Shown here: piece after piece, positions 6,508 to 64,000 of the stretch | Numbering within the stretch: position 1 is the stretch's first letter | Layout: each line of letters starts with the position of its first letter | Assembly (NCBI GenBank): GCA_017654855.1 | Contig: JAFMPO010000001.1 | Location: 124,001 to 188,000, forward strand | Origin: Podospora anserina | Taxonomy: Eukaryota | Length of the DNA stretch: 64,000 bases | Direction: 5' to 3' | Made by a program: the position numbers and the translations under genes | The notes under the pieces: model-generated | What the model saw: only the letters and a program-made list of their open reading frames with translations | Told to the model about the DNA's origin: nothing | The model's database searches: none

Positions 6508-7239
6508 CTACTCTAACTCGACCGGCAAACACCCGTCGCTCCGTTCCCCTCTTTCACAACCCGATGGACAATCCCCCCCGGCAAACTGCCACCCAAACAA
6601 CACCTTACTCTCCTCACTTCCCACCCCCCCAAGCACCACCTCCGGGTCCTGATCCCTCATCCCGACTCCACTCCCAATAACCTCCTCACTCCCTATATCC
6701 AACTGTCCCCATCCCAGCTCAATCAACTCTTTGATAGACACCCCATAAACATACTCCCTAAACCCCGCCCACCTCACAGCAGCAGCGCACATGGGGCAGC
6801 TTTCGGCGTTGGTGTACAAGCTCAGGTCCTTGAACGCGGCTAGCGACTCCGCTGGTGTCATATTATAAGCCGAGGAGACAAAGATTGAGGAGCAGTTGTT
6901 TATTGCTGCCATCTCCCCGTGAAGAGTCGGGTTGCCGGCCAGGGAATTCTGGTTTGCGCCAGTGCAGATGAGGGTTCCTTGGGGGTTGTCGAGGGTGTGG
7001 TTCACGATGACGGTGCCAAAGGCTGCGAAGGGGCAGGGGTAGGGGAAGAGGGCGAGGGTGTTGGCTTGGTGGATCCAGTGTTTACGGACTGAGAGGGGGA
7101 TTTTTGGGGAGGTAGTGTGATATTTTGGGGGCTTATTACGAGGTACCGGTGAGATGCTCGGGGAGTCGGCTGGGGAGTGGGTGCATGATGTGGTTAGTGA
7201 GATCACAAGGGGTAATGAGGCTATTGAGAAGCTCTTCAT
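6508..7239 (-). CDS. Cytidine/deoxycytidylate (guanine-deaminase-like) Zn deaminase with a predicted signal peptide
   Basis: Zn motifs PTLHGEMAAI and LYTNAESCPMC, also PFAAFGTVIV; hydrophobic N-terminus. Confidence 0.85.
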   Translation of the reverse strand: MKSFSIASLPLVISLTTSCTHSPADSPSISPVPRNKPPKYHTTSPKIPLSVRKHWIHQANTLALFPYPCPFAAFGTVIVNHTLDNPQGTLICTGANQNSLAGNPTLHGEMAAINNCSSIFVSSAYNMTPAESLAAFKDLSLYTNAESCPMCAAAVRWAGFREYVYGVSIKELIELGWGQLDIGSEEVIGSGVGMRDQDPEVVLGGVGSEESKVLFGWQFAGGDCPSGCERGERSDGCLPVELE

Positions 7240-7579
7240 ATTGGGTTGTTTGTGAATTGGAGGGATGGAGGATGAGATAGCTTTGTCGATGATGAGTTGT
7301 GGTTACCTATGAGAATTGAAGGTTGGAATGCTGACATCATCGGTCGGAATTGGCCATGATTCGTTGGCGGCCACATATCTCATACCGCAACCACACTGAA
7401 ACTAGTAGTGAGCGAAGATTCGCGAGAAGACGGTCGTCTCTATGTTCTATTATGAAGATAGTCGTTCCTGTGCTCTAGTATGAAGATAAATAATTATGTA
7501 CCCAATTTGGGTGCCAGAAGATTTTACCACTGCTCAATGACGTCCACACCCTGTCCTGTCTTCCAGTTAAAAGTCCCTA

Positions 7580-13999: not shown

Positions 14000-16405
14000 C
14001 TAGTACATGTAAACCCCACCCGGGAATGCCCTTCCTCCCCTAGCCCGAACCAGCGCGGATGCATCCACCCTCTCCCGCGCCGTTGTGCCACGGGCCAGCG
14101 CTTGATTCCGGCCGTCAGTCGTGAAGAGAATCTTGGACACCCGACTCGAGTCCTGCATGTGCTCACGCAAGAGTTTAATGAAATTCAAAAGGTGCCCCAT
14201 GCTCTCCCTGTCCCCTGCAAACTGCAGCCCATCAATGACCCAACTGATCACAGGGGGTGTGTACACAAGCAGCGCCTTGATGATGTTTAACGCCGTGGGA
14301 AGGCTGTGCAAGGTCCCGTCAAGCTTCGCGAATTGGTCACCGTGGAGGCTCTTGCCTGCTGTGAAGCCTTCTCTGGGAAGCACCCAGGCAAGTTGGCGGA
14401 TGGTGGAGCAGAAGAGGGATACGACTGCCGCGTCTCTGTGGGATAATGTCGGCTTGCTGGCACTGCTCCCGCTCCTGCCACTGCCACTGCCAGCGAAGCT
14501 GTATCGGGACCTGCAAAAGTACGAAATGCAAGGAATACCGGCGTTCATGACTCCATCGGCAGCTTCGATGGCGGCTTTAGAAAGCACAGAACTACCCGGG
14601 GAGGATGGGCCTTCCACCCACATCATTCGGGAGCCAGAGTCAGATATCCAGTTGCTGAGTTGGGTGTACACTTCTTGCGGGATCATGGTTGTTTGTGGGT
14701 GGGACTCGGCTCTCAGGAACTCTTCGGCACTCTCGATGTAGGGCCTGAGGGCTTCGGTGTATTGTTGGATTCGCCAATAGTCGGGCATTGTGGGTTCTGC
14801 TGGCCACGATTAGGTTAGTCAAGTTCTGAGCGTGTGCATGTGGTCCAAGGGAGGATATCACCGCTGGTTATTATGTCCTTTGAAGGGTTCGTCGATTGTC
14901 CTTCGCTGGGAAGTCTCGCCATGGCGTGGGATTTCGGCATTTCTGGCTCGTTTGCTGGCTCGTCAACTGTTAAGGCGGGCGGGACGTTTGAGGATTGCTG
15001 TGGGGATTGGAAAGTAACGTCTGTAAGGTTGAAACTCGTTGGTTAACTGCAGAAGCAAAAGAGAACCACGCGCAGCATTATATAGCTACACAGGTGGAAG
15101 TCGGGAGAGGCAATGGAGGCGGCAACTCAAGAGTGAGCTGACACTCTGTGACGGTGATTCATGCCCCGCGGCACATTCGAGGCCTCGTGGCCTTTTTATG
15201 GGTTTAGGATGATAGAAAATCGCCAACTTACCGTGAGTGACTTGGTCCTCGACACCTTCAAGCTGATGTACAGCTTTCTCTCCCAATCTCTGAAGCCCAA
15301 CTGCTGCCGCGGCAAGTTTCACGTTGACCTGCTGCTCGGTGTCCGCGTGAGTCTGAACTCCAAGTTGTTGCAGCCTGACCAAAAGTGGTTCCATGTCGTT
15401 CATTTTTTGGTGCATGTGCTCGATACGCAGCTCAGTCGTATGTTGTGCCTCGTTGCGGATGTCGCCGATCGTCTTTTGGATGCCGTCGACCATGGCCTTG
15501 ACCGTCTTATCATAGAATCCTTTGTTGAATGACGCCAGAAATCTCTTGTGGCGTTTGTGGAAGAAGGACATGGCGTGGCAGAGGAACTTGAACACTTGGA
15601 CGTATAGCGCCACAACAAGCCTTTGCATTTCATTTGTGTTCGCAACTTGTGTTTTCTTCTGCACAAATGTCAGGTTCTCACTCATTTCCACAAGGGCAAG
15701 TGAGAATCCCTCAGCAATCTTCTGGTAATTGACCGAGGCCTGCAATAAGTTGCACCATTAGTAAAAGCGATGACAGGCATGGGCAGGGGTAATGCTCTCA
15801 AACCTTGACGACGGATGCCACAACCCCAGTGAGGAGGCTGATGTACTTGTCCTCGGCCGGAACAAACTTGAACAAGAATGAATGATCATCCATTGTCTCC
15901 ATGAAGCGGAGAAGCCGATTTCTGGCGAGGCCAACGCCAGACTCATGCTTGGCCTCCCAACCAAGACGGGCGTCATTGACTGCCGCTTGCAAAGTTGCAA
16001 TGCTGGGAAGTGGCGAGTGAGCGGCCCCGGATGTTAATTCTCCTGGAGGGACGAAGAGCCTTTGAAACTCCTGCCAAACTCGAATCAACTCTTTGCGCTG
16101 TTGCTCTAGCGGATCGAAAATTGGATCACTGTTAGCCGTAGTCAGTTCATGCAGACGTGTAGACACACGGATGGGCCGTTGGCATATCCCTATGTTGTAA
16201 CATACCTAGAGCAGTCACTTTGGAGCCAATAAACCCACTCCTGAGCTTTAACACGTTGAATACTCGGTCGATGGCCTGCCTGTTGAACTGTGGAACCGAG
16301 TGCTTGAGAGAGAGGGTCTTCTGGGTTTTCTTTTTCGACTTTGAGACTGTAGGAACGAACTGCTGGTGTGATGGGTGTTGGATCCTCCTCTCTGATATCG
16401 TTCAT
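14000..16405 (-). CDS. Goodbye-like N-terminal domain + degenerate NACHT-like domain, no C-terminal repeats; multi-exon (middle exons uncertain)
   Basis: FMETMDDHSFLFKFVPAEDKYISLLTGVVASVVK|ASVNYQKIAEGFSLAL...LYVQVFKFLCHAM is Goodbye-like. Later: LSNWISDSGSRMMWVEGP (Walker A position lacking GKT), ISYFC, LFCSTIRQL, WVIDGLQ, KILFTTDG. GT-AG introns at about 16205-16129, 15803-15741 and from 15231. Confidence 0.7.
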
Positions 16406-31235: not shown

Positions 31236-33249
31236 TGTGACGAACCCCTATCCAGAACCTCTAAAAGGGATACTGGTTGAAGGCACTTCTGAACAATCCT
31301 GGTTCGGTGCAGCTAAACAGTGCACAACAAGATGTCTCGATGTAAACACAAGATACCGTGAATACAAGCTGTGATTGCATACTGCGGAACTATCTACAAG
31401 CTATCTAGTTCCTCCGTATATATAGACCTTCCTTAGTAGTACTCATCATGCTCGGTCCCTGAGCAGGCCGAGCACACTGCTTCGTCGCTCAGTCCCCTGA
31501 GCGCACTGAGCGCCTCTGCCTCGCTGCTCAGTGCCCCGAGCACACTGAGCAGCCGTTCTTCCTCGTGATTGGCTCCCTGTCCTTATTCCCGATTGGATTT
31601 TGTTTCCTATGGCCCCACAGCCCTTTATAACCAATCGTAATTCTCGTCCTTGTACCAGGACTGTGACACGATGCTCCCCCCCTCAGGCCGACGTCCCGAC
31701 GGCCTAGCTTTACTTCTTCTTTCAACGACAACCTTCCCAGGTAAGTCTTTTTCCCTCTTTTCACTATCCTCCAACTATATCTAACCGCGTTAAGAAACCT
31801 ACGCCGAAAGGCCTTTCCAGCACCCTTCGTCGTCAGAATCTTGCAGTCGCCATTGACTTATTTGGTGACGAAATGCTTCCCTGTACTTCCTGCGAAACCC
31901 TTAACCTTACCGATTGCCGCGTTCTTGACCGTTCCTCCAAATGCAATCATTGTCTTCGTGCTAGTCGTCCCGACTGCGATGTCCTGGGTCTCACTCCCGC
32001 CCTAACGGCCTCCCTTCGTCGCCAAAAGGAGAAATTGGATGCCGAAGAGCAAGAGGCTCGCGCAACCATGTTACAGGCGGCGTCGAAACTTACTCGGGTA
32101 GATACCCAGCGTCGTACCTTATCCGCCAAGTTTCGTCGCATCGCAGCCCGCGAGCAGCGGTTGATTGAGGACTTGGAGCGGGAAGAGGCGCAAGCCGCTT
32201 CTTCCGCTAACCCCTCCTTGGTCCCTTCCTTCGACTGGACCTCCGCGTCGAACTGGCTAGATCCAAACCTCCCAATTGATCCGTCCCTCGACCTCCAGTC
32301 TGCCTTTGGCCCTCTTCCTGGCTCGACGGCCGGTTCTCCCCGGAGTTCCCCTCCTTTAGCCGTCCAGGGTTCCTCCGATGGAACTCCTTCAGCTTCTCAG
32401 GGCAACTAAGGTTCGTGACTGGCTCCCAAGAGTTATCCGTGGCTGGGTAGCCTAGCCAGCTAACCAAATATTCCAGTTGTCCGTCATTAATGCGAGAGTC
32501 TAGTACTTCTTCCACGTCGTATTCCTCTTTCTCGTCCTCGGCTTTTACTTGTGTGTCTGGGCTGGCCGCCCGTGGTGCCGGTTCTAAGAGCGAGATGTGG
32601 AAAGTGTGTGACCTTAGACGTATCGTACTGGGTAGCTCCAATTCGAATGCCGTCTCTGAGATCTTCCTTTTGACCTTGAATGGGCCCACTCTCCTGTGGT
32701 CCAGCTTTTTGCTAGGTCTCTTGGTGCGTAAATTGCGTGTGGAAAGGAATACTATGTCTCCCCCCCTAAGGCGAGGTCCTTCGAGCCTTTTGGTATTATA
32801 GTATTTCCGTATCCTTTCCCTTACAAACTCCAGTTCTTGCTTAAGCTTACCGTAGAGTATATGTAGCTTGTCTGCCTTGACCCCAGCCCTGGGTACCTTA
32901 ACGCTGAGTCCTTGCCGTAGGTCTGCCTTATATCTAAAGTTTACGAAGAACGGCGTGGCTTTAGTCGTCTCTATTAGTAATATATCATATATTAATTGTG
33001 CCGTAGGCAATAGTTCAACCCAATTATCCTGCTCGAAATTAATGCAATTCCGTAGGTACTATTTTACGATTGAGTTAAGCCATTCCGTTTAACCGTTTAT
33101 CTAAGGGTAGTAAGCCGAAGACGCCTTACTTACTACCCTTAGCCTCGTTATTAACGCTCTCTAAAACTTCGATACGAATTTAGTATTACGGTCTATAATA
33201 AACTCCTTTAGCTATATATATATTACTATAATATAGCGTAGTACTATAT
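31236..33249 (-). mobile_element. 3' part of a chromovirus-type Ty3/gypsy element: family-A 3' LTR (31236-31668), PPT, integrase C-terminus + chromodomain
   Basis: The LTR is closely preceded on the minus strand by purine-rich GAGGGGGGAG. The ORF has KKLDHRRVGPFKV, TFHISLLEP (GPY/F) and EYDVEEVLDSR...EYLVSWLGYPATDNSWEP (chromo). RIP-mutated toward 33249. Confidence 0.9.
31777..32409 (+). CDS. Antisense accessory ORF of the retroelement (Cys6-like cluster + coiled coil)
   Basis: CTSC...C...KCNHC...C followed by heptad-like LRRQKEKLDAEEQEA. The frame is open from ATA 31777 (possibly a RIP-mutated ATG); the first real ATG is 31873. Confidence 0.6.
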   Translation: MSNRVKKPTPKGLSSTLRRQNLAVAIDLFGDEMLPCTSCETLNLTDCRVLDRSSKCNHCLRASRPDCDVLGLTPALTASLRRQKEKLDAEEQEARATMLQAASKLTRVDTQRRTLSAKFRRIAAREQRLIEDLEREEAQAASSANPSLVPSFDWTSASNWLDPNLPIDPSLDLQSAFGPLPGSTAGSPRSSPPLAVQGSSDGTPSASQGN

Positions 33250-38016: not shown

Positions 38017-39153
38017 TACTGCAACCCAACCATGTAGCTTTCGACTTGATTCAAGTAGCTGATCCTCATTACCCACGAGTGGTCTATTGTGAGACCTATC
38101 GTAATTCAACCATTGCCCCCCAAATGCGTCACTAGACACAGAGCCGAAATGCTTATTTATCCGTGGTATGTCTGCAGGACATTCTGTTTCGTTCTGATGT
38201 ACAGGCAGATACATCTTCCCGACCTAGACAGGGGGTTATCCTGACGGGCTGAGCTCTGTGGTGGCCTTGGCAACCCTCGGCCAGATGAAGCTATTCCTAG
38301 AACACCTAGCCCTGCACACACCACCACACCAGAAACATCCAGAACCTGCTCTCTCCACGCTCAGACTAACGTACACAGCGATACCAGAAGCTCATGCAGA
38401 TGAACCTCCACCTTCTGTTCTATCCTTGCTTCCTTAAGTTTAGTGCTCTCCTAGAATGGCCTAGCTAGTTGCAATACGCTACCGGACTGGTATACCGCAA
38501 TCATCTCGATTTGAAATGATTGATGGCCCTGGGCCACCAGCGAGCCGAAATGATTGTAGGAATCCTGCGGTCAATCATTTCGGCACAGAACGACACCCAA
38601 ACCAGGAAAGAGTGGTTTTGACCGGAGGGACTACTCGTGATTTGCCCAGCAGCCCTGGAATTTGTGGCCCCACCATCTTGCCAGTCCGCCATGCATTTGT
38701 TCCCAAATCAACTCACGAAGCAGAAGGCAGGCCACGACAATCCCGCTTTCAACTCCCAAAGCCCTTTCTTGCTGTATATCGCCGATAAGCGTAGAACAGC
38801 AGTTGCGCCGCGTCTGCTTGTCCAAAGGCATTGCTGGCCCCGGTCGATGTTGTTGCCCGACCCCGCGGATCAATATGATTGGACATGGACACTCCATGGC
38901 ACTTCGAGCTTGCGCCTCCACGCAGTTGAGAGAATCAACAACTCAACTGCTCGCACCAGGCATTTGACCTTTGTCCACCAGAAGCGATCGGTATCAAACA
39001 CTCTTCACCTACCGCCGTCGAACAAGAAAGGCCGGAAGTAGCCTCCACTTGGGAGCAACCGCGCCAACGTTTGTTGAGCCACAGCATCAGCGGTGCGGGG
39101 AACTTTACGATTCTCGGGATTGACCGTGCAAACCCCGCTGCCAGTACCTAGCC

Positions 39154-42100
39154 ATGCCTTCTGTCAATCTCAGCCAGGCCATGCATTTGATCGGATGGAC
39201 CACTGCTCTTTGTCTCTTAGCTGGTGCGATTGCCTCTGGCCTGTGGTTCTATCCCATATTCGCGCGTTCCAAGCCCGCACCGTCGTCTCAGACCGGGGAC
39301 AGCTCAGGCCCCGCACGATCCACGCGACAAGACGTCCGCCTCTGTCAAGTTAACCCTGACAAGAACGAGACAGACACCGACATCGATATCATTGCCATTC
39401 ATGGCCTCGACACAAAGTCGCCGGACACGTGGACATGGGTAGACCCCAACGATCCCAACAATACCGTTAACTGGCTGGCCGACCCGCGAATGCTCCCGAG
39501 TCAAGTGGAAGCAGCTCGCATCTTCACATGCGACTGGCCTGCCGATCTGCTTCAGCCGTCAGACTTGGTCCAGAAGACGGACGACGAGATCGCTTTGCTC
39601 CTATTCGAAGGAATCAAGAGAGATCTCTTGGGAACGCATGATAAAAAGAAAGTAGACCGGCCGATTCTCTTCATCGCTTCCTGCCTTGGGAAAATCATCT
39701 TGGCAAAGGCTCTGGTGGGCGCCGATCATAAACGCAGCAGCTATTATAGTCTGAGGACAGCAACATGTGGGATTATCTTCCTCGCCACCCCGTTTGGAGG
39801 GACTTCGTTCGAAGACGTAGCTATCTGGGCAGATCCAGGTCTGACCGCATGGGCTCTGATCCGTCGCCGAGAAGTGAGTAACCTGCTCGGCTGGGTGAAG
39901 GGATCGACCTTCGCTCTTAAGGTACTAGTTCGGAGGTTCACGCGGCTATGTCAAGATAATCACAACCCCTGCCATGTATTCTGCTTTTACGAACTTGGAA
40001 AAACGAATCTCTGGCGCAAGGTATTTCCTTAGCTACCAGCCTCACTCCCTGGATGGAAGCAGGTAAGAACCGCGACGTACCTTCGTCCCAGAGCTACGAC
40101 TAACGATTCCCAGCTGGTCGACATGAGGTCAGCAATCCTTCAAATCGTCTTTAAACCGCTGCCGCTTGATCGAACCCACCGCCTAATGAATAAATTCGAC
40201 GGCCCTAAATGTCCGGACTACAAACAAGTCTCTGGAAAGATTCTAAAGTTTCTCACGAAGATATATAATGGAACCCCCCTCGCACAGGCGGACGCCAGGA
40301 TTCGCAATGTGCACTATTCGCTGGAACGGCTCAAAATTGAACGACTGTCGGGCGACCTACTACCGATGGGCAGATACTAGATCAATCTGGCCATTGTCGA
40401 GTGGCCTGGCGATAATGCAACTCGCGGAGGAAAAGGAGACACAGCACAACAGTCTTCCCCGTTTTCGCTCCTCGCCCGACTAAATGTGGAGACACCGGAC
40501 AAGACGATCGAGGTCACGCTGCCGACGCTATTTGAGCCCCGCAAGTCACAGGACGGCCAGAAGAAACAGCCAAGTCGTATCCTGATCCGTGGACGGGCAG
40601 GAATAGGTAAGACTACTCTATACAAAAAGATTATCTATAATTTTATATATAACAACCTATAGCAGGGCTTATTCAATCGCGTACTTTAGGTACCACTGCG
40701 GAACCTAAAGGTAGAAAAGAGATAGAGTGCCGGATATAACTTCCGGGATTTGTTTTACCATGAGTATTTCTCTCAAGATCTCGAAGGCCGCGAGCTCTCC
40801 GATGCATTGTGGCGCGTCTTGAAGGACACCAAGAGCGGCAGGACTTTGTTCATCCTCGACGGTTTCGATGAAGTGTCACATGGCCTAGGCGGCGACATGT
40901 CTGTCTTCTTCGAAGAGCTCTTGAATCAGCCAAATGTCATCATCACTGCCCGGCCCAACGCACGGCTTCCTCCTCGGCTAGATCCTCTCGACCTCGAGTT
41001 GGAAACCATTGGATTCTACCCGGACCAAATCACGGCCTACATTGAAAACACCTTTACCGATCGAGAAACGAGCGAACGCGATTTGGAAAAGATCAAAGAG
41101 GTTCAATCGTTTCTGCAACGCCATCCGCTCATGCAAGGTCTAATGCGTATCCCGATCCAGCTAGATGCGTTTTGCTATACCTGGAATGGTTTTCCTCGGG
41201 CAGGTGTGCCGGAGACCATGACAGCTGTCTACAAAGCTATCGAGGAGAGTCTGTGGAAAAAAGATATCTTGAAGCTACAGAAAAAGAAGGATGGTGAGCC
41301 TGTAACGGGAGACCAGATTAAGAAGGCTAGCCGGAAAAAGATTGAAAGCTTCGTGGAGCAGGAGCTCAGATTCCTTGAGTGCCTTGCCTTTTTGGGGTTC
41401 TATGACGACGTGATAGACTTCGATTGGGAACTTCGAAACGCTGTTTCTGATAGATTTGCATCAGATCTCCTACTCGACAAAGATCTGCCTTGTCTCTCAT
41501 TCCTACGAACGTCGGACCCTTCATCAAACGACCAAGATCGAAATTACCACTTCTTACACCTCACGTTTCAAGAGTATTTTGCAGCACGGTATTTCATTCG
41601 ACAGTGGAAAGATAAACAACAGCTCAATTATCTGCAACTCAGCCGTGACAATTGTAACAATATGGAACCTGCCACTTTCCTTAAGAAGTATAAATACGAT
41701 CCTCGCTACGATATCTTCTGGCGCTTTGTCGCAGGATTACTCGATGCCGATGACATGGCCCTCGACTTCTTCCAGATGATTGAGAAGGAACCACGCGATC
41801 TCCTAGGACCTACGCACCAACGCCTTATCATACATTGCCTAAGCGAAGTTGAGCGGAAGGAGTCGAATTTCACGGGACTTCGAGCGAGGCTAGAAAACCA
41901 ACTAGAACAGTGGCTACTGTTTGAATCCGATTCTACGGGGAATTCCGAACTAGTCCATGAAATGGAGTGTCCGGGGCAGGTCCTGTCCAATGTATTAACG
42001 CAAGCATCTGAAGGCGCAAGAACGGTTCTTCTCGAATCACTATCTAGACGAACAGCAGTGCCGTTCAGTGTTATAAAAGTCGTATCTCCCTGGCTGACCA

Positions 42101-42900
42101 ACCGCACCTCTGCACACCAATGTGCTGCTATCTTGCGTATGTTAGGAAACCAGCATAATAACTTACCGGACAAGATCCACCAAAGCATCGCAGCACGGCT
42201 CGAGGATGAGGACTGGGGCGTCCGGGAGGCAGCAATGGGGGCGCTTGGAGGCCGCGCCGACCTCCCCGACTAGGTGCTCCAAAGCATCGCAGCACGGCTC
42301 GAGGATGAGGACCGGGGCGTCCGGGGGGCAGCAATCGACGCGCTTGGAGGCCGCGCCGACCTCCCCGACTAGGTGCTCCAAAGCATCGCAGCACGGCTCG
42401 AGGATGAGGACCAGAGCGTCCGGGGGGCAGCAATGGGGGCGCTTGGAGGCCGCGCCGACCTCCCCGACCAGGTGCTCCAAAGCATCGCAGCACGGCTCGA
42501 GGATGAGGACCAGGGCGTCCGGGAGGCAGCAATCTGGGCGCTTGGAGGCCGCGCCGACCTCCCCGACCAGGTGCTCCAAAGCATCGCAGCACGGCTCGAG
42601 CATGAGGACCAGGGCGTCCGGGAGGCAGCAATCTGGGCGCTTCGACGCCGCGCCGACCTCCCCGACTAGGTGCTCCAAAGCATCGCAGCACGGCTCGAGG
42701 ATGAGGACTAGGGCGTCCGGGGGGCAGCAATGGGGGCGCTTCTATATTAATCAGTATTACCGTTATATATCCTCATCCTATATATCCGATCCTTTTACGA
42801 CGCTTTACTCCAGAAAAGCTTCAGGGAGCATTTATACTAGTACGCTTCGGAAAGTAGTTTTATAGGGACTAATCTTGGACATATTTCTTTAACCGGCGAG
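39154..42900 (+). pseudogene. NLR: SesB-like alpha/beta hydrolase - NACHT - HEAT repeats; RIP-inactivated
   Basis: IDIIAIHGL, RPILFIASCLG, GIIFLATPFGG (hydrolase); intron 40063-40113; ILIRGRAGIGKTTL (Walker A), LFILDGFDEV (Walker B), IPIQLDAFC, YHFLHLTFQEYFAA; 33-aa HEAT-like repeats. TAG stops at about 40030, 40378, 40660, 40687, 40723 and within the repeats. Confidence 0.9.
42181..42741 (+). repeat. 99-bp tandem HEAT-coding repeat, about 5.7 near-identical copies
   Basis: Units start at 42181, 42280, 42379, 42478, 42577 and 42676; consensus QSIAARLEDEDxGVRxAAxxALGGRADLPDQVL. Confidence 0.95.
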
Positions 42901-43412
42901 CAACATAACGTAAAGGAGGCAGTAAGGAAGCTACTATTAGAGAAGGGCACTGCCAACGTAAATGATGGACGTAGACGGCTGCCGTCACACTTAGCTGCTG
43001 AGAACTGGGAGGAACCGGTGGTATAGTTATTACGGCCGAGGCTATAAAACAACTTATTCGTTCTACGTTCATATTCGCACTTTTCTCCTTCCAGTTTTTT
43101 TTATCTTTAAACATAGCGTGCCACCAGAAGGGTCCGGGAGAACGTGTGAATATATACTTGTTTGTGAGTTCTAGCATCTTCCAGATATTTATTTCTCACA
43201 AAATAATAACTCACTTGCTACTGACCTCATTCTACATTGAGCGTCAACTCTCGTCACGTTATCATCATGCGAAGAGAACTATTGTGCCGCCTTTGGAGGG
43301 CTCCTCCGGACTGGCTCATTGTATCACACTCTTACCGCTCCGCCGCATGCTGATAATGTGTAGGCTACAACTCACGACCCCACAGCCGATCATGATCTGC
43401 ACGTGGACCCAC

Positions 43413-43763
43413 TGTCACGGCGGTTGGCTTGCGTCAGCATCAGACGACAACACCATCAAGATCTGGGATGCGGCAACGGGGTCATGTACCCAGACGCTTG
43501 AGGGACATCGCCATTCCGTCTGGTCGGTAGCGTCTTCCCTCAACTCGAAGGTGATTGCATCCAAGTCAGATGATGCCAACCCCCCACATTATCAAGGCTA
43601 TGGGATAGACTTGAGCCAAAGATGGATTACGAGGGGCTCAGAAAACTGGCTATGGCTGCCTCTGGAATATCAGTCAAGGCGTTCAGCTGTAGCGGCATCA
43701 ACAGTTGCTAATGGCTGTTCTTCGGGACGCGTCCTAACTATCACGTTCACGACAGACAGCTAA
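43413..43763 (+). pseudogene. 3' fragment of an HNWD/NWD-type WD40 NLR gene
   Basis: WLASASDDNTIKIWDAATGSCTQTLEGH..SVWSV closely resembles HET-E/HNWD repeats. It is followed by the typical tail GYGID...WITRGSENWLWLPLEY...GCSSGRVL. Confidence 0.8.
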
Positions 43764-45455: not shown

Positions 45456-48062
45456 ATGTCGGCTTCTCATCCCTCGCAGCAGGCATTCGAAGCCGCCAAA
45501 AAGGCATTCAAGCAGAGTTTGAAAGACGAGAACTTGTTTGGAAAACTGCTCGCAACCACCAGCATAGAGCAGGTCTACGAAGCCGTACAAGATATCCAGG
45601 CAAGCGCTCATGTAGAACGACGCCTCCGACACCTAGGCAAGATCCGCACGTTCATCGAAAAATAAACCGAATATGTTTCTGTCGTTGACACGTTGGTGCA
45701 GGTCAAGCCGGATATACTGGCACTGATTTGGGGACCTATTCGTTTATTGGTAGTATGGACGAGCAGTATCACAAAGTTTGCCGATGCTGTCACCGATGCC
45801 ATGGAAAAGATTGGTGACGCGCTGCCACATGCTCTGAGGTCGGCCAACATATTTAACGACAATGACAAGTTGAAGGCACTTCTGGAATTATTTTACGGGG
45901 ACATCCTCGACTTCTACATAATTGCCTTGAAATTCTTTAGTTTATCTCGTAAGTACATTCGCTCGTCAGCTTCAAATATCAGGTATATACTTACCACCAC
46001 CAGGGTCGGACCTTGTCTTTGAAGCGGTGTGGCCAAAGCAACGGAACAAGATCGATGTCGTTGTAAGCAACATCAAACGGCATACAACTCTGATGAGGAG
46101 CGAGGTGACAATGCAGCACATAAGTGCAGAGCACGAATTTCGAGACAAGTGTTTGGCACATTTTGATCACGAGACAGATTTCCAAGAGCTACAAAGGTTC
46201 CAGACACTCAAGATTCGCGTCTCCCCTCGGATCTATGACGATCGACTGGACTGGTTGCTGAATCGATCGTCCAAAAATTCAGCCGAGTGGCTTGCTGCCG
46301 ACAATATTTTTCGAGGATGGCTCGACCATCTCCAACTCAGCTGTGCGACTGTTGTGATTACATGGCATTCCAGGAGCAGGTAAACTCTCTTTGTCCCTTG
46401 ACTCAACAATGTTTGTCAGAAACTGATATTGCACTCTAGGCAAAACCTTTCTCTCTGCAGCTGCCATCGACGAGGCTAAGACACGCCACCGAACACTTTT
46501 TGTATTTGTGAGCCACATCTATCAAAACAGCACTACAGCCAGATCCATTCTCCAGTCACTGCTCTTCCAGTTGGCGTTTGACGTCAAGGATGCCCAGTCT
46601 CTCCTAGTCGAATCAAACGAACGAGAACTGCTCGGCAGCACTAGACACGTCCTAGGGTTGCTTAGAACGCTCCTTGGTACTCCTACTGCTGGGCCAACGT
46701 ATATTATTCTCGATGGGCTGGACGAGATGGAGGTTGTCGAACGCGGGATATTGTTACAGCAACTGACTGACTTGGAAAGCTGTCCCGAGTTAAAGATACT
46801 CATCAGTAGTCGGCGTGAGGATGACATTGCTAGTATTTTAGGCGCTAAAGCCACCGAAATCAGGGTGGATAAGAGAAATTCCGACAGTATCCAGGCATAT
46901 ATCAACCAGAGGACTCAGAACTGGATACGGACTGCGAACTTCGAGCAAGAAATACGAAATCGAGTCGAGCGTCTGCTAGCACCCGTAGCTAAAAACGCGA
47001 ACGGTAAGTGATTACTTCTAACCTCCTGCCACCCGGGTTCCGCCCATCGCAAATCTAGTTCGAGTTTGCTGATTATGTGGCACAGGCATGTTTCTCTATG
47101 CTCGCATCATTCTGGATAACGCCGAAACGTGCAACGGTCTTGAAGAAATTGAACGAGAACTCAGAGTACTCCCCGTCGACTTGCATGACGCGTGAGTGTA
47201 GTGGTGGAATCATTTGTCATCACGGAGACTGAGTAATATTTTAGGTACCACCGTATCCTTGCTCGAATCGGCCAATCCTCTTCAACCTTGCGACACAAAG
47301 CGATGTTGATCCTCGGCTGGATTGGATCATCCCCTATTCCCATGACGCGGCACGAGATGGAACAAGCCTTATTAGTCGACTCAAGCTCAAATGCAGCTCC
47401 CGCCGTTATCGCCGAGGTAAATTTTGTCCACATTTGCGGCCCAGTCATAGAAGTTGTAGATGATAGTCTGCAGTTTGTACATTTCACCGTCAAGGAGTAA
47501 GTGAATTGAAACTCTGCCACGGTGATGTCTGAAACACTGATAAAACTGCAGATATATTTTCAGTCGAGAAGTCAGTGGATTCATCGATCACGCTGAAGCC
47601 AATCACAGCCTTACAAAGACTCTACTAAGCTATCTTTGCTCTGGGGCCTTCGACGCGGCACTCCCAGACGAAAAACTTCAACAGAACATCCTGGCCGGAA
47701 TATACCGCCTCCATTGGTATGCTACAAGCCAATGGATTGTGCTCGTCAGACGTTGTGTAGAAAAGTCCAAGGACCTGTCCGCCTACCCGGACTTGCTCGA
47801 GCCCCTCACACACCTGGTGCTGGAGCTGAGGAGTCATTCCTTCAATGGCCAAGTGGACTTCAACGACCGTGCTATCCGGGCCATGGTGCCAGACCGGCCT
47901 GAAATTTCCCAATTCGTCTGCGGAATCCTGCAGTTTCGACAAGACGATAGACAGGCAGATTGGAATTACACAAATAGTATGTTACGCAAGCTGCAACCCC
48001 TCGACTTGAAGGTCATACAAATCACAAAGCTAATTCGACCATCATCCCCACAGGTTGCACAT
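45456..48062 (+). pseudogene. Goodbye-like - NACHT NLR, disrupted and 3'-truncated
   Basis: QVKPDILALIWGPIRLL (Goodbye-like); LHGIPGA|GKTFLS (Walker A split by an intron); YIILDGLDEM; GMFLYARII; QFVHFTVKE|Y. Stop at 45663, frameshift at about 46330; ends at an LTR remnant. Confidence 0.85.
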
Positions 48063-56301: not shown

Positions 56302-59300
56302 TGAAATGGTGAGAAAACACACAAACCAACCACAACACCACAAATATAACCTCAACAGGTTTTTCTAAATGAATCCACCTGCGTGACAGTGACTCGCTCG
56401 CAGGCCGCACTTCACGTAGGACAAAGAAAAGACACTATGGGCTCGCAGGCCACATAATAAACACCGGATTGGCCTGATCAGAGGGCCAGAATTGCCTGCA
56501 CGCGTGCAAGGCACAAAATACGAAGAAATAAAAGTCGATGTCCTGTCTAAAATAGAATGCCCGAAGCAGACCGCTTATATACATGACCCCTGAACCCCCG
56601 AATCCTCCGAGAGCCCCACCTCCTTACTCAAACCCTTAGGCCTATGACCGCACCCCAAACTAAACCTCCCTTCGCATTTGACCACTACAAACCAGTGGGC
56701 AAATGCGTACACAAGAAAAAAAACATCCCTTCCAAGCGAAAAGAAAACATCATTCAGCAAAAATAAGAGAAAATAATATAATCCTGCCATTCCTTCATCC
56801 ATTCTCCTTTAATCAGAGAGAGGAGTACCCTCACTTCTCGGATCTTAGAGCATACCTCCGTCCCTGTCGAGCCATTACAACCGGTAACCTAACGACCTCC
56901 TCCCTTCGTCTCTAAGGAACTCCAGGAGCCCACTCCCATCCCATAAAACCAGGTGTATAATCAGGCGAAAGGTGTGTTGTTGGCGATCCTGAGTGGTTAT
57001 AAGTAGGGGGCCGGGCAATAACTGGCCCAGAGAGAAGCGGCGAGTCCATCGTCACAGGAGTACGGAGCCCAAAAGGGGTTACCACCCTACTTAGTCGTTA
57101 AGAGTCGCTCGATACGCTATATAGTCCAAACTTTTTATAATTAGAGGGAAGATCTATTATATATTTATCTCCTTTAATAATAGTAACTAAAGCTAACGGA
57201 GAACTAGGGAGGGAAGTAAACTAGGGAATTAGTGGAGACTTAAAAGGAGACGAGAGGGTGCTTGGTAAGTTAAATCCTTCCGCGTCTATCAAGTCCTCCA
57301 GGCCCCTCCTCCTCCATTTCTTATCACGCACCCTCTAATTAGGCTTATAACCTAAAAACCTTTTTATATAAGCTATCCATAACCTTATTATTTTCTTCCC
57401 CGTAATATTTACGGTTTTATAGTTTTTATAATAACGATCTCCTCTTTAAGCCTTTACTACCGTTAAATCCTTTTTTTTACCGTACGAAATACCTCCCTAA
57501 AAATAAGTATAGTAATATTTTAAAACCTAAAAACTATATTCCTACGCCTTACCTTATTTACTATAAACTAACCTCCTTACTTTTACGTTAAGGCTATAGT
57601 AAAAAGCGTAACGAATATAAAATACTAAATAAAAAATAGTATTAGCTTAATACTTTTTTTAATCCTTCGACGAGTTTATATAAACTAAAATATTAATAGT
57701 AACGTTATAAATATTTATTACTTAATAATTTTTATTATTAATATAAATAAGGAGGATTTAGTATCGTCGGTTAAAAATATTATAATTATCGTTAAATAAA
57801 AAAAAATGTATTAACGACTTTATTATAATAAGGTTTAAAGGCTTTTTAGGGATCTATATATAACGCTCGAAGATTTTTTAAAGAGAATACCGAAAAACGT
57901 AAGTAAGGACCGAGCTAATAAACTACTACTTAATTTTTAATTAACCTTAAAGGTTATATATAACGTAAGTAAAGGAAGCTATATAAATATTATAAATATA
58001 AATCCGATTAAGGGGGGTCGTTATTTTTAAATTAAGAAAAAAATATTTAATAGTATTAATCGAAAACTACTTTATAAAAGTAATATTAATTTAGTCGGGC
58101 TACCTTTCTATAATATAATTTCTTAGGTCGGTAATTAAATTAAAGTTAAAACGAATAAGTTAAAAAGTATTATTACTTTAAAGAAGGAAAATATCGTGCG
58201 GAGGATTAAAGTTATAGACCCTATTAATACTTTAAAGGCGCGCTTTCCGAATAATCTTTTTAATAAAATTATTAGGAGGACCGAATTTCTTAATAATAAT
58301 AAATTCTTTTTATAATATATTATAAATAAACTTTATAAAAAGCGTTAATAATATTATTTTATAAGAATTAAGAGGGAGTAATATATAGTATAATTTATAA
58401 TTAAAGGGTTATTGAAAGGGAAGTAAAGAATTTTTTTAGAATAAAAAATTAAAAAGGGAAGAAGGTTTTCGGTAAGTCTTTATTCTTTATTATTTATTTA
58501 GTTTATAAAGTAAAATTATTAAATAATTACGTAAGCCGTTTAAAGAGGAAAGAGCGTTCTAATAAATCTCCCTCCTATAAAGGTTTATAAAACTAATCGT
58601 ACCGTCCTATCCTTTAATTATAAATACCTATACTAATTCTCCTTATTCCCGCTTACTCCTTATTTTTTTTAATATTTATTAACCGCTTCCTCCTAATAAC
58701 CTTTTTTTTAAAAAAACCTATTATTTCGTTTAATTAAATAATCGACGACTTTACTATCTAAATATTTATAACCTCTTTCGCTAAAAAACTTCCTAATTAA
58801 ATCGAGGGAGTTTTTAACTTTATTATATACGATTAATCCGAGGTCGCTATAAACCCTATTTAAAAGCCTTTACTTATTACCCTTATTTATTATCCTACCG
58901 ATTTTACCCGTACTCCTAATAATTAAAATATTATTTATAAAAAGTATATCTAGATTCGGTATCCTACTTACGTTTACGATTCTATTATATTTAAAAGTAT
59001 TAATATTTATTATAATATTTTTCTCCCCTATTAAACTATTCTTTAATACCTTAAAATTTCCCCTCTAAATCCTAAATACGTAACTACTCCCCTCTACCTT
59101 AAATAATTCCTCCCTAATCCGGCGAAAAAGGAAGGTAAAAAAGAATAGTAATTACTTTTTAAAGATATTAGTACGGATAAAATTATTATTAATTATATTT
59201 TTAAAGTATTATCGACCGGTTCCGTTAAACAGATTTTTATTAAATAGTTTAATAAATAATTTTTTAGGTATTAACTCTTCGAAATTATTAAACGGGTTTA

Positions 59301-62300
59301 TTACTTTAAAAATTTATTTATTTAAATTACTAAATTATTATAAATATTGCCCCCCTAATTAAACTTAATTTAATATTAATATATTAGATTTAATTATATT
59401 AATTTATATAATAAATATAATTAAAATTATTATTAATTTTTTATAACGTTCCCCGATAGGACCAAAACTAAAGTAATATAATTATACTTCGGTTATATAA
59501 GAAGAAAGGACTTCGATTAAAAATATAGGAATTACTAATATAAAGATATTTATTACTTATAATCTAATATTAATAAAAATAACCTTTACTTTAAGGATCT
59601 TAATAATAATAAATTATCGAAATTAAATTATAGTACCGTAAATTTAATTTTTAATAATAAGGAAGTCAATTAGGATTAAGAGTAAGAAAAATAGCGGGCT
59701 AAGTATAAAAAGCTTAAAAAATAGTAAATAAATAAGAAAAAAGAAAAAAAAAAAAAAAAAAATAGTCTTTTACTTTTTTAGATTAGAGGAAAGGGTATAA
59801 AAAAAAAAGTAAATCGGAAAAAAAAATAATAAAAAAAAAAAAAAAAAAATTAAAAATTTAATATAATAATCTTTACTTTAATTAATTACTTCCCTTAATA
59901 TCTTTCTTTCCTTTAAAAATAAATAGCTCCTATAACTTTATTTTTATAATATAAATTTTAATACCCTTTTAAAGAAAAATAATAATTATAATACTTTCAT
60001 TATCGTTTCTCCTTAATTACTTAAAAAGTCCTTTAATCTACCCTTCTTTAGGATTACCTTTATACTTTTGCCCTTCTTAAATCTCTTTTATACTTTAATA
60101 TTTTTCCGTTCTATTTAAATTTTCCCCCTAATTATTATTTTCCCTAATATTTCTTCTACTATCTCTTTTTCTTTATCCTTATTTTCTATTATATCTACAC
60201 CTTCCTTTACTCTATTCCTAGGCACCTACTTAACTTTCTTTAATCCTAACTATATATCTATATCCTTTTTATTTATATATATATTTTTTAACTTAAAAAA
60301 TTTCTTTACCCTATTTAACGTATAAAAAGTTTATAATAATATTTTATTTAATATTTTTAGAAAGTAATAAGTATTATTTAGTTCGACCTTCCTTACTTTA
60401 AAAGAGCTGTCCTAGCGATACTATAATTTCCTTATTATACTTATATTTAATTTTTTATTTATTTTATATATTAATATTAAGTCCCCCCTTTTAATTATAC
60501 TATTCTTAAGCTTAATACTATAAATCTTTTTTTTATTTTTTTTTACTACGGCTTTCTATTTTACTATACTAACCCTCTTAACTACTAAAGTCAGATTTAT
60601 CTTCTAGGATTTTAATAGTCTCGCCCTTACCTCTATTAAATCTATAATCGCTCTCTCTTTCTAGTATCTCCCTAATCTATCGAAGCTAATTTTTTTTTAT
60701 TAAACGACTCTCTATAACGGTATATCTTTTTCGATCGGTGTAATAGGGTTAAATCTATATATTAAATAAAAAGTACTATACTTATAAATACCTCGTATTA
60801 TAATTCTATTAATAAATAATATATAAAGGAGCCACTACTTTTACTTTTTTCCCGTCCTATCTATTATTTTTATTAATATCGATATAATTAAAATATAATT
60901 AAACTCCGTTACTCTATTTACTTTTATATTATAAAGTAAAATTACTATCCGAAAAACTTTTAACTTTTTTAAAATCTTAACCGCTTCCTTTTTAAATTCC
61001 GATCCTCCGTCCACTATTACGATTAAAGGGTAACTTTATTTAAGGATAATATTGTATAAAATAAAGTTTTTAACCCTAAAAGCCTTACTTAAGTTTAAAA
61101 CCTTCGTTTCTAGATACTTAATTAAATTATCCTTTACCTTTAGAAGGTAAACTTTTTTTCCGGAAACCGTTAGTAAAAATTAAATATTTAAATACTATTT
61201 CGTAAATAAGGTAACTAAAGGTTTAATATATAAATATTAATCCTTTTAACGCTTCGGGCTCTACTATTAATATTACTTATATATCTTAATTTAAGCTTTA
61301 ATATTAACGTATATACCTTTCTAATAATAGTTTTTTATTATTCGGGCGTAGGTAGCTTTTCGTCCTTTATAACCTATTTTATTATAATACGTATTAAAAA
61401 TTTTTTCTCGCTTAATTAAAAAATCAATAATTCTTTTAAGGGGAAAACCTTTTTTATTTAATTTAAAGAATAAAACTTTATCTTCGAAAATTATTTTTAA
61501 AATATTATTTTTAATAATTTAAACGTTAAACTTTATCCTAGCCTTTAGTTCTATATTAGTCGCGAGGAACTTAGTAATAGTATAGGAATAAGGAAATTAT
61601 AATCCGTTTAAGTAGGGGCCTTACTTAATAATTTCTTTTTTTTTTTTTTTAATATTTACCCGCTAAATATTTATTTTTTAAATATTATTTTTTTAGATCC
61701 TTACGTTAACCTTATTATTTATATCTAGTTCTAACTCCTTCTTCTTTAAATTAAAGGGGCTAAATAGCTTTCTCGATAGTACGTTTACTATAAGGTTCTT
61801 ACTTCTAGGAATATAAATAATAATAAAGTCGAAAAGTTTAATCTATCCTAACTATTTTATTATTAAAGCGCTAGGAACGTTACTAGCCGCCCTTTAAACT
61901 TAATAGATTACTACTTAAGTATCCGTTTCTACCGTAAAATATACCCCGAAAAAATACCTTTTAAATTTCCTTAAAATATATAACAATCCCCTTAACTCTC
62001 TCTTAATAGCATTATACCTCTATTTAGCCGGGCTCTAAATACTACTCTTAAACTAATAAAGGTACCGTTTTTTATTAAGTTCTACTTATTTAATTACCGT
62101 TCCTTACCCCGTTAAACTTATATTAAAAATAATAAAAATTTTACCGAAATAATTATTATTAAACGTTAAAAAAACTAAATATAATATTTTTATAATTAAA
62201 AAAGTAAGTTACGTTATTATACCCTATTAAACTTTTATTTATTTTTATTTCGTATCCTTCCTTATTAAGAAATATAGCGGAACTATAATTAAATTAAAGA

Positions 62301-64000
62301 GAGGTACCTATAGTTAATAATAGCCGGTAATCCTTAAGAAAGCACGAATATCTTTTAAATTATAGTAAATTCGTTATTCCCTTATCTTTATTATTTTTAT
62401 TTAATTAGGGAAGTATCCGTCCGGTATATAAAAATAGTTAAGGATAATAATTTTTTATTTATATTAAAGGGATTTTATAATTATAATTATAGTTTTTATA
62501 AACTTATAATTAAATAAAACTATATTAATATTCTTTAAATACTCTAAAACCTACTTCTTAATTCCTAACCTCTCTTCTTTACTATTATAGTCCCACTTTA
62601 GCCTTTTTACTATAATATTATTTAAATATAACCGACATACCTATAGAATAAAATCTTAAAAAACTTTAATTACAGTTCTTTAAAACTAAATTATTAAGTT
62701 AGTAGCTCCTTAAAGTAAAGTATATATCCTAAATAGGCCGATAGGTATCGCGAAAGTAATAAGGTCTCGGCTCGTTAAAACTAATTTAACTTAATTATAT
62801 TTAGAAAAGAAGTCGAGTAAGGAAGTAATAAAATACCCCCTAAAATCTTCGCTAAACTCCTTAATACTTAAAGGAATAAAGGTATTTTATTATATAACTT
62901 TATTATATTTCTAAGCATCGTTAATTAAACGGAAACCACTATCCTTTTTTTTTACTAAAAACTAATTATTATAGTAAGGACTATACACTTCCTTAATAAT
63001 ACCTCTCTTAACCCGTTCCCTAAAAAGTTTAATAACTTTCCCTATAAATAATTTTAAAATTAAAATAAATTTACTTTACTACGTATTATAAAGAATAATT
63101 TTAATATATTAAGTAGGAAAAACCTTTTTAAAGATCCGTCTACACTCGGTAAAATCCTAAGCTAAGGCAGCCTCTTTTATAAATAAGATTATTATAAATA
63201 TTTTAATTTTTTAGTTTATTAAAATATTAATAGTTTATTTAATTAAATCGATTAACCGTTCCGAAATAAAGTATAACCCTCTAATTACTTTAAAAAACTT
63301 AAGTACTATAATATTATTAAATTTTAAACTGTATTATAAGGATTCCTTAATTACCGCCCATCTCCTTACTTTCTAATTCGGATCTCCCTCAAAAGTACTA
63401 TTATCTAACCTAATATTATTAACTAACTTTACCTTCTTATTTACCCTCTTATATATTATTATAGTAGTAATAGTCTCCGCAAGTGTTAACTAAGCTTACT
63501 TAAAAGTAGTAATTAGGCTAGTCTTAATATTATTTTTCTTTTTAAAAAGGGGCGGGGGTAGAGGCGGGCGACGTTTATATAACTATATAGCGAAGAGGCT
63601 ACATTAACTTAGTTAAGTAAGGGACTAATTAAATATCCCTAAATATATAGATGCAATATCGGGCTTAAATAGGGCTGTTATAGTAGTCGTCTGATTAGAC
63701 GGCGACGATGTTTTTAGTAGCGGTAGCGACGGTAATATTAATGGTACTAAATATAGACCTATTATAAAAGTCGGCGGTGGTGGTCGTTCTTTCCTAGAGA
63801 TTTTATCTAGGGTTAGAGTTCTTATCGTAATTTCCACTCTTCTAAGTTAAAACAAATATTTTTCCTTTTAACGTCCTTTCTCTCCCTCCCTCTAATTACT
63901 AACATTTTTTCCTCCTTTACTCTTTATATTCCCCTTTTCTTTATTTTTATAAAAAATAATATTAAACGCTAAATAATAATTTAATAATAATAAACTTAAT
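56302..64000 (-). mobile_element. Heavily RIP-mutated Ty3/gypsy retrotransposon (family B); putative 3' LTR 56302-56797; continues beyond the window
   Basis: Extreme TpA/AT enrichment. Minus-strand relics of RT (SLLDFFS.Y about 62810; YLNN from YLDD about 62620), RNase H (VETD about 61925; NVLSR from DALSR about 61780) and integrase (VDGGSEFK about 61005). The LTR reads TGAAGG...ATTTCA, preceded by the purine tract AAAGGAGAATGGA. Confidence 0.88.

Follow-up and report, generated by a model that had tools for sequence, protein, structure and literature searches.

The 64,000-nucleotide stretch of Podospora anserina DNA analysed here (contig JAFMPO010000001.1, positions 124,001 to 188,000; hereafter the window, with position 1 as its first letter) contains at 39154-42999, on the forward strand, a decayed copy of a fungal NOD-like receptor (NLR) gene of the hydrolase/NAIP-like NACHT/HEAT-repeat type. 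The locus is very probably a pseudogene, a copy of a three-part receptor that was decayed by repeat-induced point mutation (RIP). An earlier note on this DNA had proposed a HEAT receptor undergoing diversification. The hypervariable sites of that proposal were recovered, and intact relatives from three Podospora species carry 5 to 11 repeats; the copy in the window, however, is dead, with 11 stops.

When the full-length relative P0004 (1198 amino acids) was aligned by tblastn, it matched the window in one frame over 39154-42999. The gene ends at 42999 and not, as had been proposed, at 42741, as a C-terminal cap and a tail extend past the array in the same way as in relatives. Pfam recognised NACHT (see Table 2) and, in exon 2, HEAT_2 (132.4 bits; cut-off 27.7), and the N-terminal part is predicted to have an alpha/beta-hydrolase fold, in agreement with the architecture proposed earlier. 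A Walker A motif, G-x-G-K-T, was read in the translation. The segment 41551-41586 is an exact match to FLHLT[FY]QEYFAA, the motif of the NAIP-like helical third domain, and the NACHT domain is therefore placed in the NAIP-like class. A total of 1036 homologous proteins was found at E ≤ 0.001, the best three being Podospora proteins with 87-88% identity. The closest proteins of the window gene are QC761_0024270, QC762_0059250, and QC763_0025390.

Stops and RIP-type damage

The gene has 11 in-frame stops in 1265 codons, the first at codon 293. Ten are TAG (40030, 40378, 40660, 40687, 40723, 42271, 42370, 42667, 42709, 42838) and one is TAA (42748); seven lie outside the array and four inside it. 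With these 11 stops, the copy in the window cannot work as a receptor. Of the seven stops outside the array, six stand where relatives carry W or Q, and the one at 40378 stands where they carry Y. Because relatives or sister units hold W or Q codons at these places, 10 of the 11 stops are read as single CpA>TpA or TpG>TpA transitions.

Residues private to the window were scored outside the array, and only where at least two of three close relatives agreed. Of the 44 private residues, 25 need a C>T or G>A change, and 18 of these are in CpA/TpG context. The remaining ones comprise 6 reverse transitions, 10 transversions, and 3 ambiguous cases. This spectrum agrees with the RIP context preference reported for Podospora (PMC13449251).

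Dinucleotide indices were calculated for the gene and its parts (Table 1). The usual RIP thresholds are about 0.89 for TpA/ApT and 1.03 for (CpA+TpG)/(ApC+GpT). Within the gene, RIP-type indices were observed in just two patches, 40591-40740 and 42742-42999. It may be noted that the nearby region 57000-64000 of the window is heavily RIP-mutated repeat sequence. RIP-type C:G>T:A mutations, along with a few others, have introduced the 11 stops; the P-loop and the stretch directly 3' of the array are the two worst affected.

Table 1. Base composition and RIP indices of the gene, its parts, and one nearby region
Region	GC	TpA/ApT	(CpA+TpG)/(ApC+GpT)
40591-40740 (P-loop patch)	0.38	1.53	0.50
42742-42999 (tail patch)	0.41	1.45	0.68
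Array 42180-42741	0.70	0.22	1.80
Whole gene	0.52	0.74	1.16
Window 57000-64000	0.25	1.46	0.12

Independent reads covering the gene came from 20 runs of 10 studies under one organism code; of the words sampled from 41600-43100, each run contained at least 59%. Four of these (X1, X7, X14, and X15), one of which may be the source of the window itself, were compared with it over 39000-43100. Over 39516-41595, the contigs differed from the window at 2 (X1), 3 (X7), 5 (X15), and 32 (X14) places. The stops at 40030, 40378, 40687, and 40723 were kept in X1, X7, and X15, and that at 40660 was also kept in X1 and X7. Since the contigs of X1, X7, and X15 differ from the window at no stop codon, the 5' stops are not private assembly errors.

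In one X15 contig, 40059 is joined to 40111; the joint has GT..AG ends and is the predicted 51-nt intron. The same contig joins 40602 to 40659; with a latitude of 4 nt, this joint can be placed at 40607-40662, again with GT..AG ends. Neither joint was present in the contigs of X1, X7, or X14. The donor of the 56-nt intron, GTAAGA, sits in the P-loop G-K-T codons, and the AG that serves as its acceptor belongs to the TAG stop at 40660-40662, which is TGG in relatives. The mutation that turned the codon at 40660 into a stop, a G>A change, appears also to have created a splice acceptor, apparently used in one run. Transcription and splicing of the locus thus seem to persist; if X15 is RNA, the pseudogene is transcribed and one of its mutations gave rise to a functional splice site. 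Other X15 contigs, covering 42680-43009 and the surroundings of 42370, were compared at 16 listed positions with T or A in the window; at 11 of these, among them the stops 42748 and 42838, they have C or G. These contigs may come either from a less mutated allele or from the transcript of a paralog, and they were not used as evidence.

A functional gene, in which the TAGs are sequencing or assembly errors or are overcome by readthrough or recoding, would be in line with the repeated use of one codon (10 of 11 stops are TAG) and with the apparent transcription and splicing of the locus. We consider that this can hardly be the case. The TAG sites correspond to W, Q, and Y in relatives or sister units, so that no single recoding fits, and one stop is TAA. 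The gene retains 23 TGG, 28 CAG, and 27 CAA codons, and CpA>TpA changes would yield mostly TAG. Moreover, the stops are accompanied by many RIP-type missense changes, and the same 5' stops are found in the contigs of three other runs. Elsewhere in the window, TAG ends 4 of 11 long Pfam-supported frames, a weak point, since introns can terminate a frame as well.

In the same four runs, the segment 39333-39464 was also found in contigs from elsewhere, with 9 differences, a common unlike flank at 39333, and raised word depth. At 41466-41739 the word depth is about doubled, and an X14 contig has 41504-41595 with 8 differences. The sharing of 39333-39464 and 41504-41595 points to one or more paralogs that are nearly identical to the gene over short stretches.

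Several points weigh against a pseudogene decayed by RIP. The stop at 40378 is a transversion, and the direction of the mutations was deduced from amino acids only, without the DNA of the relatives. Neither the whole gene nor the array has RIP-type indices. No duplicated partner of at least 400 bp was identified as a RIP trigger, the contigs of the four runs giving paralog traces only; repeat arrays have been discussed as RIP triggers (PMC13449251), and the 562-bp array could itself be the trigger. For X14, the comparison covers 9 of the 32 differences, so that the retention of the 5' stops refers to X1, X7, and X15, and the RNA nature of X15 is a guess from its record. Lastly, the ligand binding, oligomerisation, and cell death ascribed below to intact relatives are taken from the family.

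The HEAT array and its variable positions

Tandem Repeats Finder placed the array at 42180-42741, with a period of 99, 5.7 copies, 94% matches, no indels, and a score of 984. By blastn, unit 1 was 94.9, 94.9, 94.9, and 92.9% identical to units 2-5, and 97.0% identical to the partial unit 6 over 67 nt. The earlier count of about 5.7 near-identical copies of a 99-bp unit was thus reproduced. No second copy of the unit was found elsewhere in the 64-kb window, where the other blastn matches were of 21 nt or less (E ≥ 0.67).

Across the five full units and the partial one, 12 columns vary, and each of them alters the residue in the reading frame of the gene, as expected from the earlier claim that nearly all differences are non-synonymous. 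The variable codons of the 33-codon unit are 9, 12 (two columns), 13, 16, 19, 20 (three columns), 23, 24, and 31. Six columns are transitions and six are transversions, the latter at codons 9, 19, 20 (two columns), 23, and 24. The residue pattern D[W/R/Q/Q/Q/*][G/S]VR[E/G]AA[M/I][G/D/W]AL given in the earlier note is correct, but it did not report the stops at codon 31, where units 1, 2, and 5 have TAG while units 3 and 4 have CAG.

We modelled 41965-42741 as a single sequence, with a predicted local distance difference test (pLDDT) score of 84.3. In this model, unit positions 12-22 lie on one helix, and positions 33 to 9 lie on the other. When entropy was calculated for 23 internal units from the four closest proteins, it peaked at positions 12 (1.96 bits), 13 (1.89), 16 (1.81), and 20 (1.53), the next highest value being 1.12. 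All these hypervariable positions of the relatives fall on one helix of the predicted window array, and the earlier placement of the variable codons on a single helix agrees with both results.

If the differences between units were RIP noise in a dead gene, they would be uninformative about receptor diversification. Six of the 12 columns are transitions, the array carries four stops, and the Q at position 12, which a single G>A change would produce from R, is absent from all 23 units examined in relatives. However, the other six columns are transversions, all 12 are non-synonymous, the array lacks RIP-type dinucleotide indices, and positions 12, 13, 16, and 20 are also the most variable ones in intact relatives. 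We therefore regard noise of this kind as a very unlikely explanation. A full account by RIP transitions, which the earlier note had named as its own refutation, reaches only half of the columns. The M/I, G/D/W, G/R, and D/H differences require transversions and are at or beside the hypervariable positions of the family. RIP-type damage and receptor diversity probably both contribute to the array variation. The stop at codon 12, where sister units have TGG, CGG, or CAG, and the TAGs at codon 31 are RIP-type damage, and the Q at codon 12 is probably of the same kind; the listed variation was not, as had been supposed, receptor diversity throughout.

The number of units was 5 for P0003 and P0004, 6 for P0009, and 11 for P0002 and P0010, compared with 6 in the window. 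P0010 is a protein of the Pa_6_7270 type (see below). A comparison of repeat number, suggested earlier, was made with close relatives of other species (5, 5, 6, and 11 against 6). For the species itself, each of the four runs yielded contigs that end within the array and give neither number nor order of repeats.

The mean pairwise protein identity of the window units is 0.85, and 0.92 when the four hypervariable positions are omitted. Between the window units and those of the four closest relatives it is 0.73-0.76, and inside each of five relatives' arrays it is 0.72-0.78, below the value for the window. The homogeneity of the window array fits a recent homogenisation or expansion. Its internal conservation is high (DNA identity 92.9-97.0%, protein identity 0.85) as measured by pairwise identity, the published cut-off being a T-REKS similarity coefficient of 0.7 or more.

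Compatible with a pseudogene, the dead copy might be kept as a store of HEAT units for gene conversion to functional paralogs. Such a role would suit the higher unit identity in the window than in intact relatives in spite of the surrounding decay, and also the short near-identical segments that paralog contigs have in common with the window. P0009, moreover, is a mosaic with respect to P0004, with near-identical N- and C-terminal parts and a diverged NACHT domain. Among WD40 NLRs, paralogs have been described as exchanging repeats, and pseudogenes whose repeats are still nearly intact are also on record (PMC13449251). On the other hand, no second array was present in the window and no identical unit was found at another locus, the search being of the 64-kb window, and the array itself carries four stops. 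We consider a unit store unlikely.

The best solved structures by sequence were the alphaRep proteins (4zv6, E = 2.2e-20). Modules of alphaRep differ at two sites after D-E-D, two after V-R, one after A-A, and one after A-L-G. These correspond to unit positions 12, 13, 16, 17, 20, and 24, or library positions 18, 19, 22, 23, 26, and 30. Positions 12, 13, 16, and 20 of the NLR unit thus match library positions 18, 19, 22, and 26, that is, four of the six randomised positions coincide. In alphaRep proteins, the residues allowed to vary are carried on the concave face (PMC3754942). For the NLR, the concave-face placement was judged from the alphaRep alignment. The natural hypervariable HEAT positions coincide with ones that engineers randomise, which supports the idea of the concave face as the binding surface of HEAT NLRs. 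No mention of this match was found in the available passages of related papers; their supplements may cover it.

An intact receptor of this kind begins with a hydrophobic helix and an alpha/beta-hydrolase effector of putative sesB-like type, continues with an ATPase domain of the NAIP-like NACHT class, and ends in a solenoid built of HEAT-like repeats of 33 residues. By analogy with known NLRs, a ligand would be recognised by the concave HEAT face of intact relatives, set by positions 12, 13, 16, and 20. This would lead to oligomerisation of the NACHT domain and to cell death through action of the hydrolase, with membranes as the probable target. Unequal recombination among near-identical units would alter their number and order.

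The N-terminal hydrolase domain and its cysteine elbow

The first 372 residues of P0004 were modelled with a 57-sequence alignment (mean pLDDT 84.3, predicted template modelling score 0.81). A helix is predicted at residues 6-32, as had been expected for a hydrophobic N-terminal helix, followed by a disordered linker and an alpha/beta sheet. A hydrophobic segment ahead of the hydrolase core was found in 30 of the 41 sequences with a complete N-terminus, that of the window included. When the model was searched with Foldseek, at least 500 PDB chains matched at E ≤ 0.001, with a best E of 2.4e-07. All the matches listed were alpha/beta hydrolases (thioesterases, lipases, carboxylesterases, and monoglyceride lipase), with template modelling scores of 0.30-0.58. 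The top match is a thioesterase, which we take to be one that uses cysteine.

In the model, C177 is between the strand 171-176 and the helix 178-189 and would form the nucleophile elbow. The elbow of the window reads A-S-C-L-G-K; the Ser required by the GxSxG criterion for serine hydrolases is Cys here. Among the 120 homologs listed, F-[IV]-A-S-C-[LF]-G-G was present in 82 and G-H-S-L-G-G in 2, while 36, most of them with short N-termini, had neither motif. In the 57-sequence alignment, the elbow residue is Cys in 55 and Ser in 2, and the Cys aligns with the Ser of both canonical sequences. Because the Cys elbow is widespread in homologs, ASCLG in place of GxSxG, which the earlier note had pointed out, is a family trait and no defect of the window copy. 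The Lys of A-S-C-L-G-K is private to the window, as 39691-39692 is G-G in all four compared runs.

All 57 sequences of the same alignment have His325, 53 have Glu280, and just 38 have Asp306. It is possible, though rather doubtful, that the hydrolase of NAIP-like NACHT/HEAT receptors in filamentous ascomycetes is a distinct catalytic class with a Cys-His-Glu centre, in which the two neighbouring His of the canonical sesB/SERAC1 form are lost. If so, it may carry out a thioester-type chemistry instead of plain serine lipase action. In the literature searched, no published description of the Cys elbow (A-S-C-L-G-G) was found; the passages of PMC9815663 that were available are silent on it, and supplements may cover it.

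Pfam gave no match at E ≤ 0.01 in the N-terminal 303 residues of the window gene, and no hydrolase family for P0004 at E ≤ 0.1. The canonical relative P0086, which has G-H-S-L-G-G, gave weak PGAP1 and DUF676 matches. By BLASTP, the N-terminus of the window gene matched P0086 with E = 1e-08, and the elbow motifs were aligned. The putative sesB-like membership is based on the fold and on homology to this relative, Pfam being silent.

Neighbourhood of the gene and known systems

The features of the gene are collected in Table 2.

Table 2. Features of the decayed NLR gene (window coordinates)
Feature	Position	Strand	Evidence or remark
Exon 1: hydrophobic N-terminal helix (residues ~6-32) and most of the predicted alpha/beta-hydrolase (sesB-like) domain	39154..40062	+	tblastn, translation, structure model, Foldseek
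Codon of Cys177, predicted nucleophile elbow	39682-39684	+	Translation, structure model
First in-frame TAG	40030	+	W in relative P0004
Intron, 51 nt	40063..40113	+	GTAAGA ... CTAAC ... CAG; GT..AG ends, CTAAC branch motif
Start of exon 2: end of hydrolase domain and linker to NACHT	40114..40575	+	Comparison with relatives
Codon of invariant His325	40177-40179	+	Alignment
In-frame TAG by transversion	40378	+	Y in relatives
NACHT NTPase core (Pfam stretch), including Walker A motif	40576..41061	+	Pfam NACHT E = 1.2e-15, 58.2 bits (cut-off 26.7)
RIP-type patch over the P-loop; TAG at 40660, 40687, 40723	40591..40740	+	W, W, Q in relatives
Cryptic intron, 56 nt	40607..40662	+	GT..AG joint, one X15 contig
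F-L-H-L-T-F-Q-E-Y-F-A-A motif, NAIP-like (N-NACHT) class	41551..41586	+	Translation
Degenerate helical repeats ahead of the array	41965..42179	+	Helix pairs in model; Pfam HEAT-type matches begin nearby
HEAT array: five full 99-bp units and first 67 nt of cap unit	42180..42741	+	Tandem Repeats Finder, blastn
In-array TAGs	42271, 42370, 42667, 42709	+	Translation
C-terminal cap and tail, second RIP-type patch; TAA 42748, TAG 42838	42742..42999	+	Alignment with P0002, P0003, P0004, P0009

Just 3' of the NLR, 43002-43763 (+) contains about 1.5 HNWD-type WD40 repeats (Pfam WD40 7e-11), and the gene model of P0009 fuses an equivalent WD40 piece to its HEAT NLR. This fragment probably derives from a further, now lost NLR. 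NLR-like pieces are frequent in the window: an NPHP3_N/NACHT piece is present at 46427-47011 (+), DUF7708 with NPHP3_N at 14000-15757 (-), and an ankyrin-repeat frame at 3763-5505 (-). In addition, a retrotransposon integrase fragment with a Tf2-1-like SH3 domain and a chromodomain was observed at 32207-33058 (-), and at 6508-7302 (-) there is a frame in which Pfam recognised the zinc-binding domain of cytidine/deoxycytidylate deaminases (7.8e-11).

The earlier note had called HEAT sensors much less characterised. The HEAT case is not new, as previous papers have described the architecture, the high internal conservation, and the variable repeat number of a HEAT NLR of Podospora anserina (PMC4986451, PMC12258605, PMC13449251). 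Table 4 of PMC4986451 lists Pa_6_7270, a sesB-like/NACHT/HEAT gene, with 10, 3, 6, 12, and 10 repeats in five strains, a range of 3 to 12, and 19 of its 41 units are unique (PMC4986451). This gene is the NAIP-like outgroup in PMC13449251, where one HEAT gene is counted among 15 NACHT genes with high internal conservation; that gene is probably Pa_6_7270. HEAT is also named among the repeat types with high internal conservation in PMC12222747. The same three-part architecture, NAIP-like NACHT class, and highly conserved HEAT repeats are found in Pa_6_7270 and in the window gene, but the latter, which has 6 units, is not the same copy and is damaged by 11 stops.

In fungi, the NAIP-like NACHT class is reported to be tied exclusively to HEAT, with sesB-like as its sole canonical N-terminal partner (PMC12258605). 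With its FLHLT[FY]QEYFAA motif and HEAT C-terminus, the window gene shows no architectural difference from this N-NACHT/HEAT class as described there, except that this member is a pseudogene. Its hydrolase domain is homologous to the canonical sesB-like or SERAC1-type hydrolases, and the alpha/beta-hydrolase fold is common to both. Cys, not Ser, is at the nucleophile position in the window, and in the aligned sequences the canonical His of G-H-S is replaced by Ser in 55 of 57 and the His of T-P-H by Phe in 53 of 57.

The alphaRep binders (PDB 4zv6, 3ltj; sequence matches of E = 2.2e-20 to 1.6e-12) have the helix D-x-x-V-R-x-x-A-A-x-A-L-G-x in common with the NLR unit. They are designed proteins with units of 31 residues, derived from HEAT-like repeats of thermophiles, whereas the NLR unit has 33 residues. 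Unit positions 17 and 24 of the NLR, the counterparts of library positions 23 and 30, show little variation.

RIP-like polymorphisms are enriched in NACHT genes with high internal conservation, and many NLRs are pseudogenised (PMC13449251). The window gene is a dead addition to this pattern in Podospora, where NLRs whose repeats are nearly identical tend to collect RIP-type mutations and frequently decay; the coincidence with alphaRep, the conserved Cys elbow of the effector, and a stop-creating mutation that also created an apparently used splice acceptor are by-products that may interest specialists. The WD40 NLRs of the HNWD/NWD type (het-d, het-e, het-r) likewise have near-identical tandem repeats, a few hypervariable codons, and changes in repeat number, and they also share with the window gene an excess of RIP-like mutations and frequent pseudogenes (PMC13449251). 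In contrast to these, the repeat in the window gene is an alpha-helical HEAT unit and not a WD40 blade, and its NACHT domain is NAIP-like and not TLP1-like. Published NWD pseudogenes keep nearly intact repeats (PMC13449251), whereas the array in the window has four stops.

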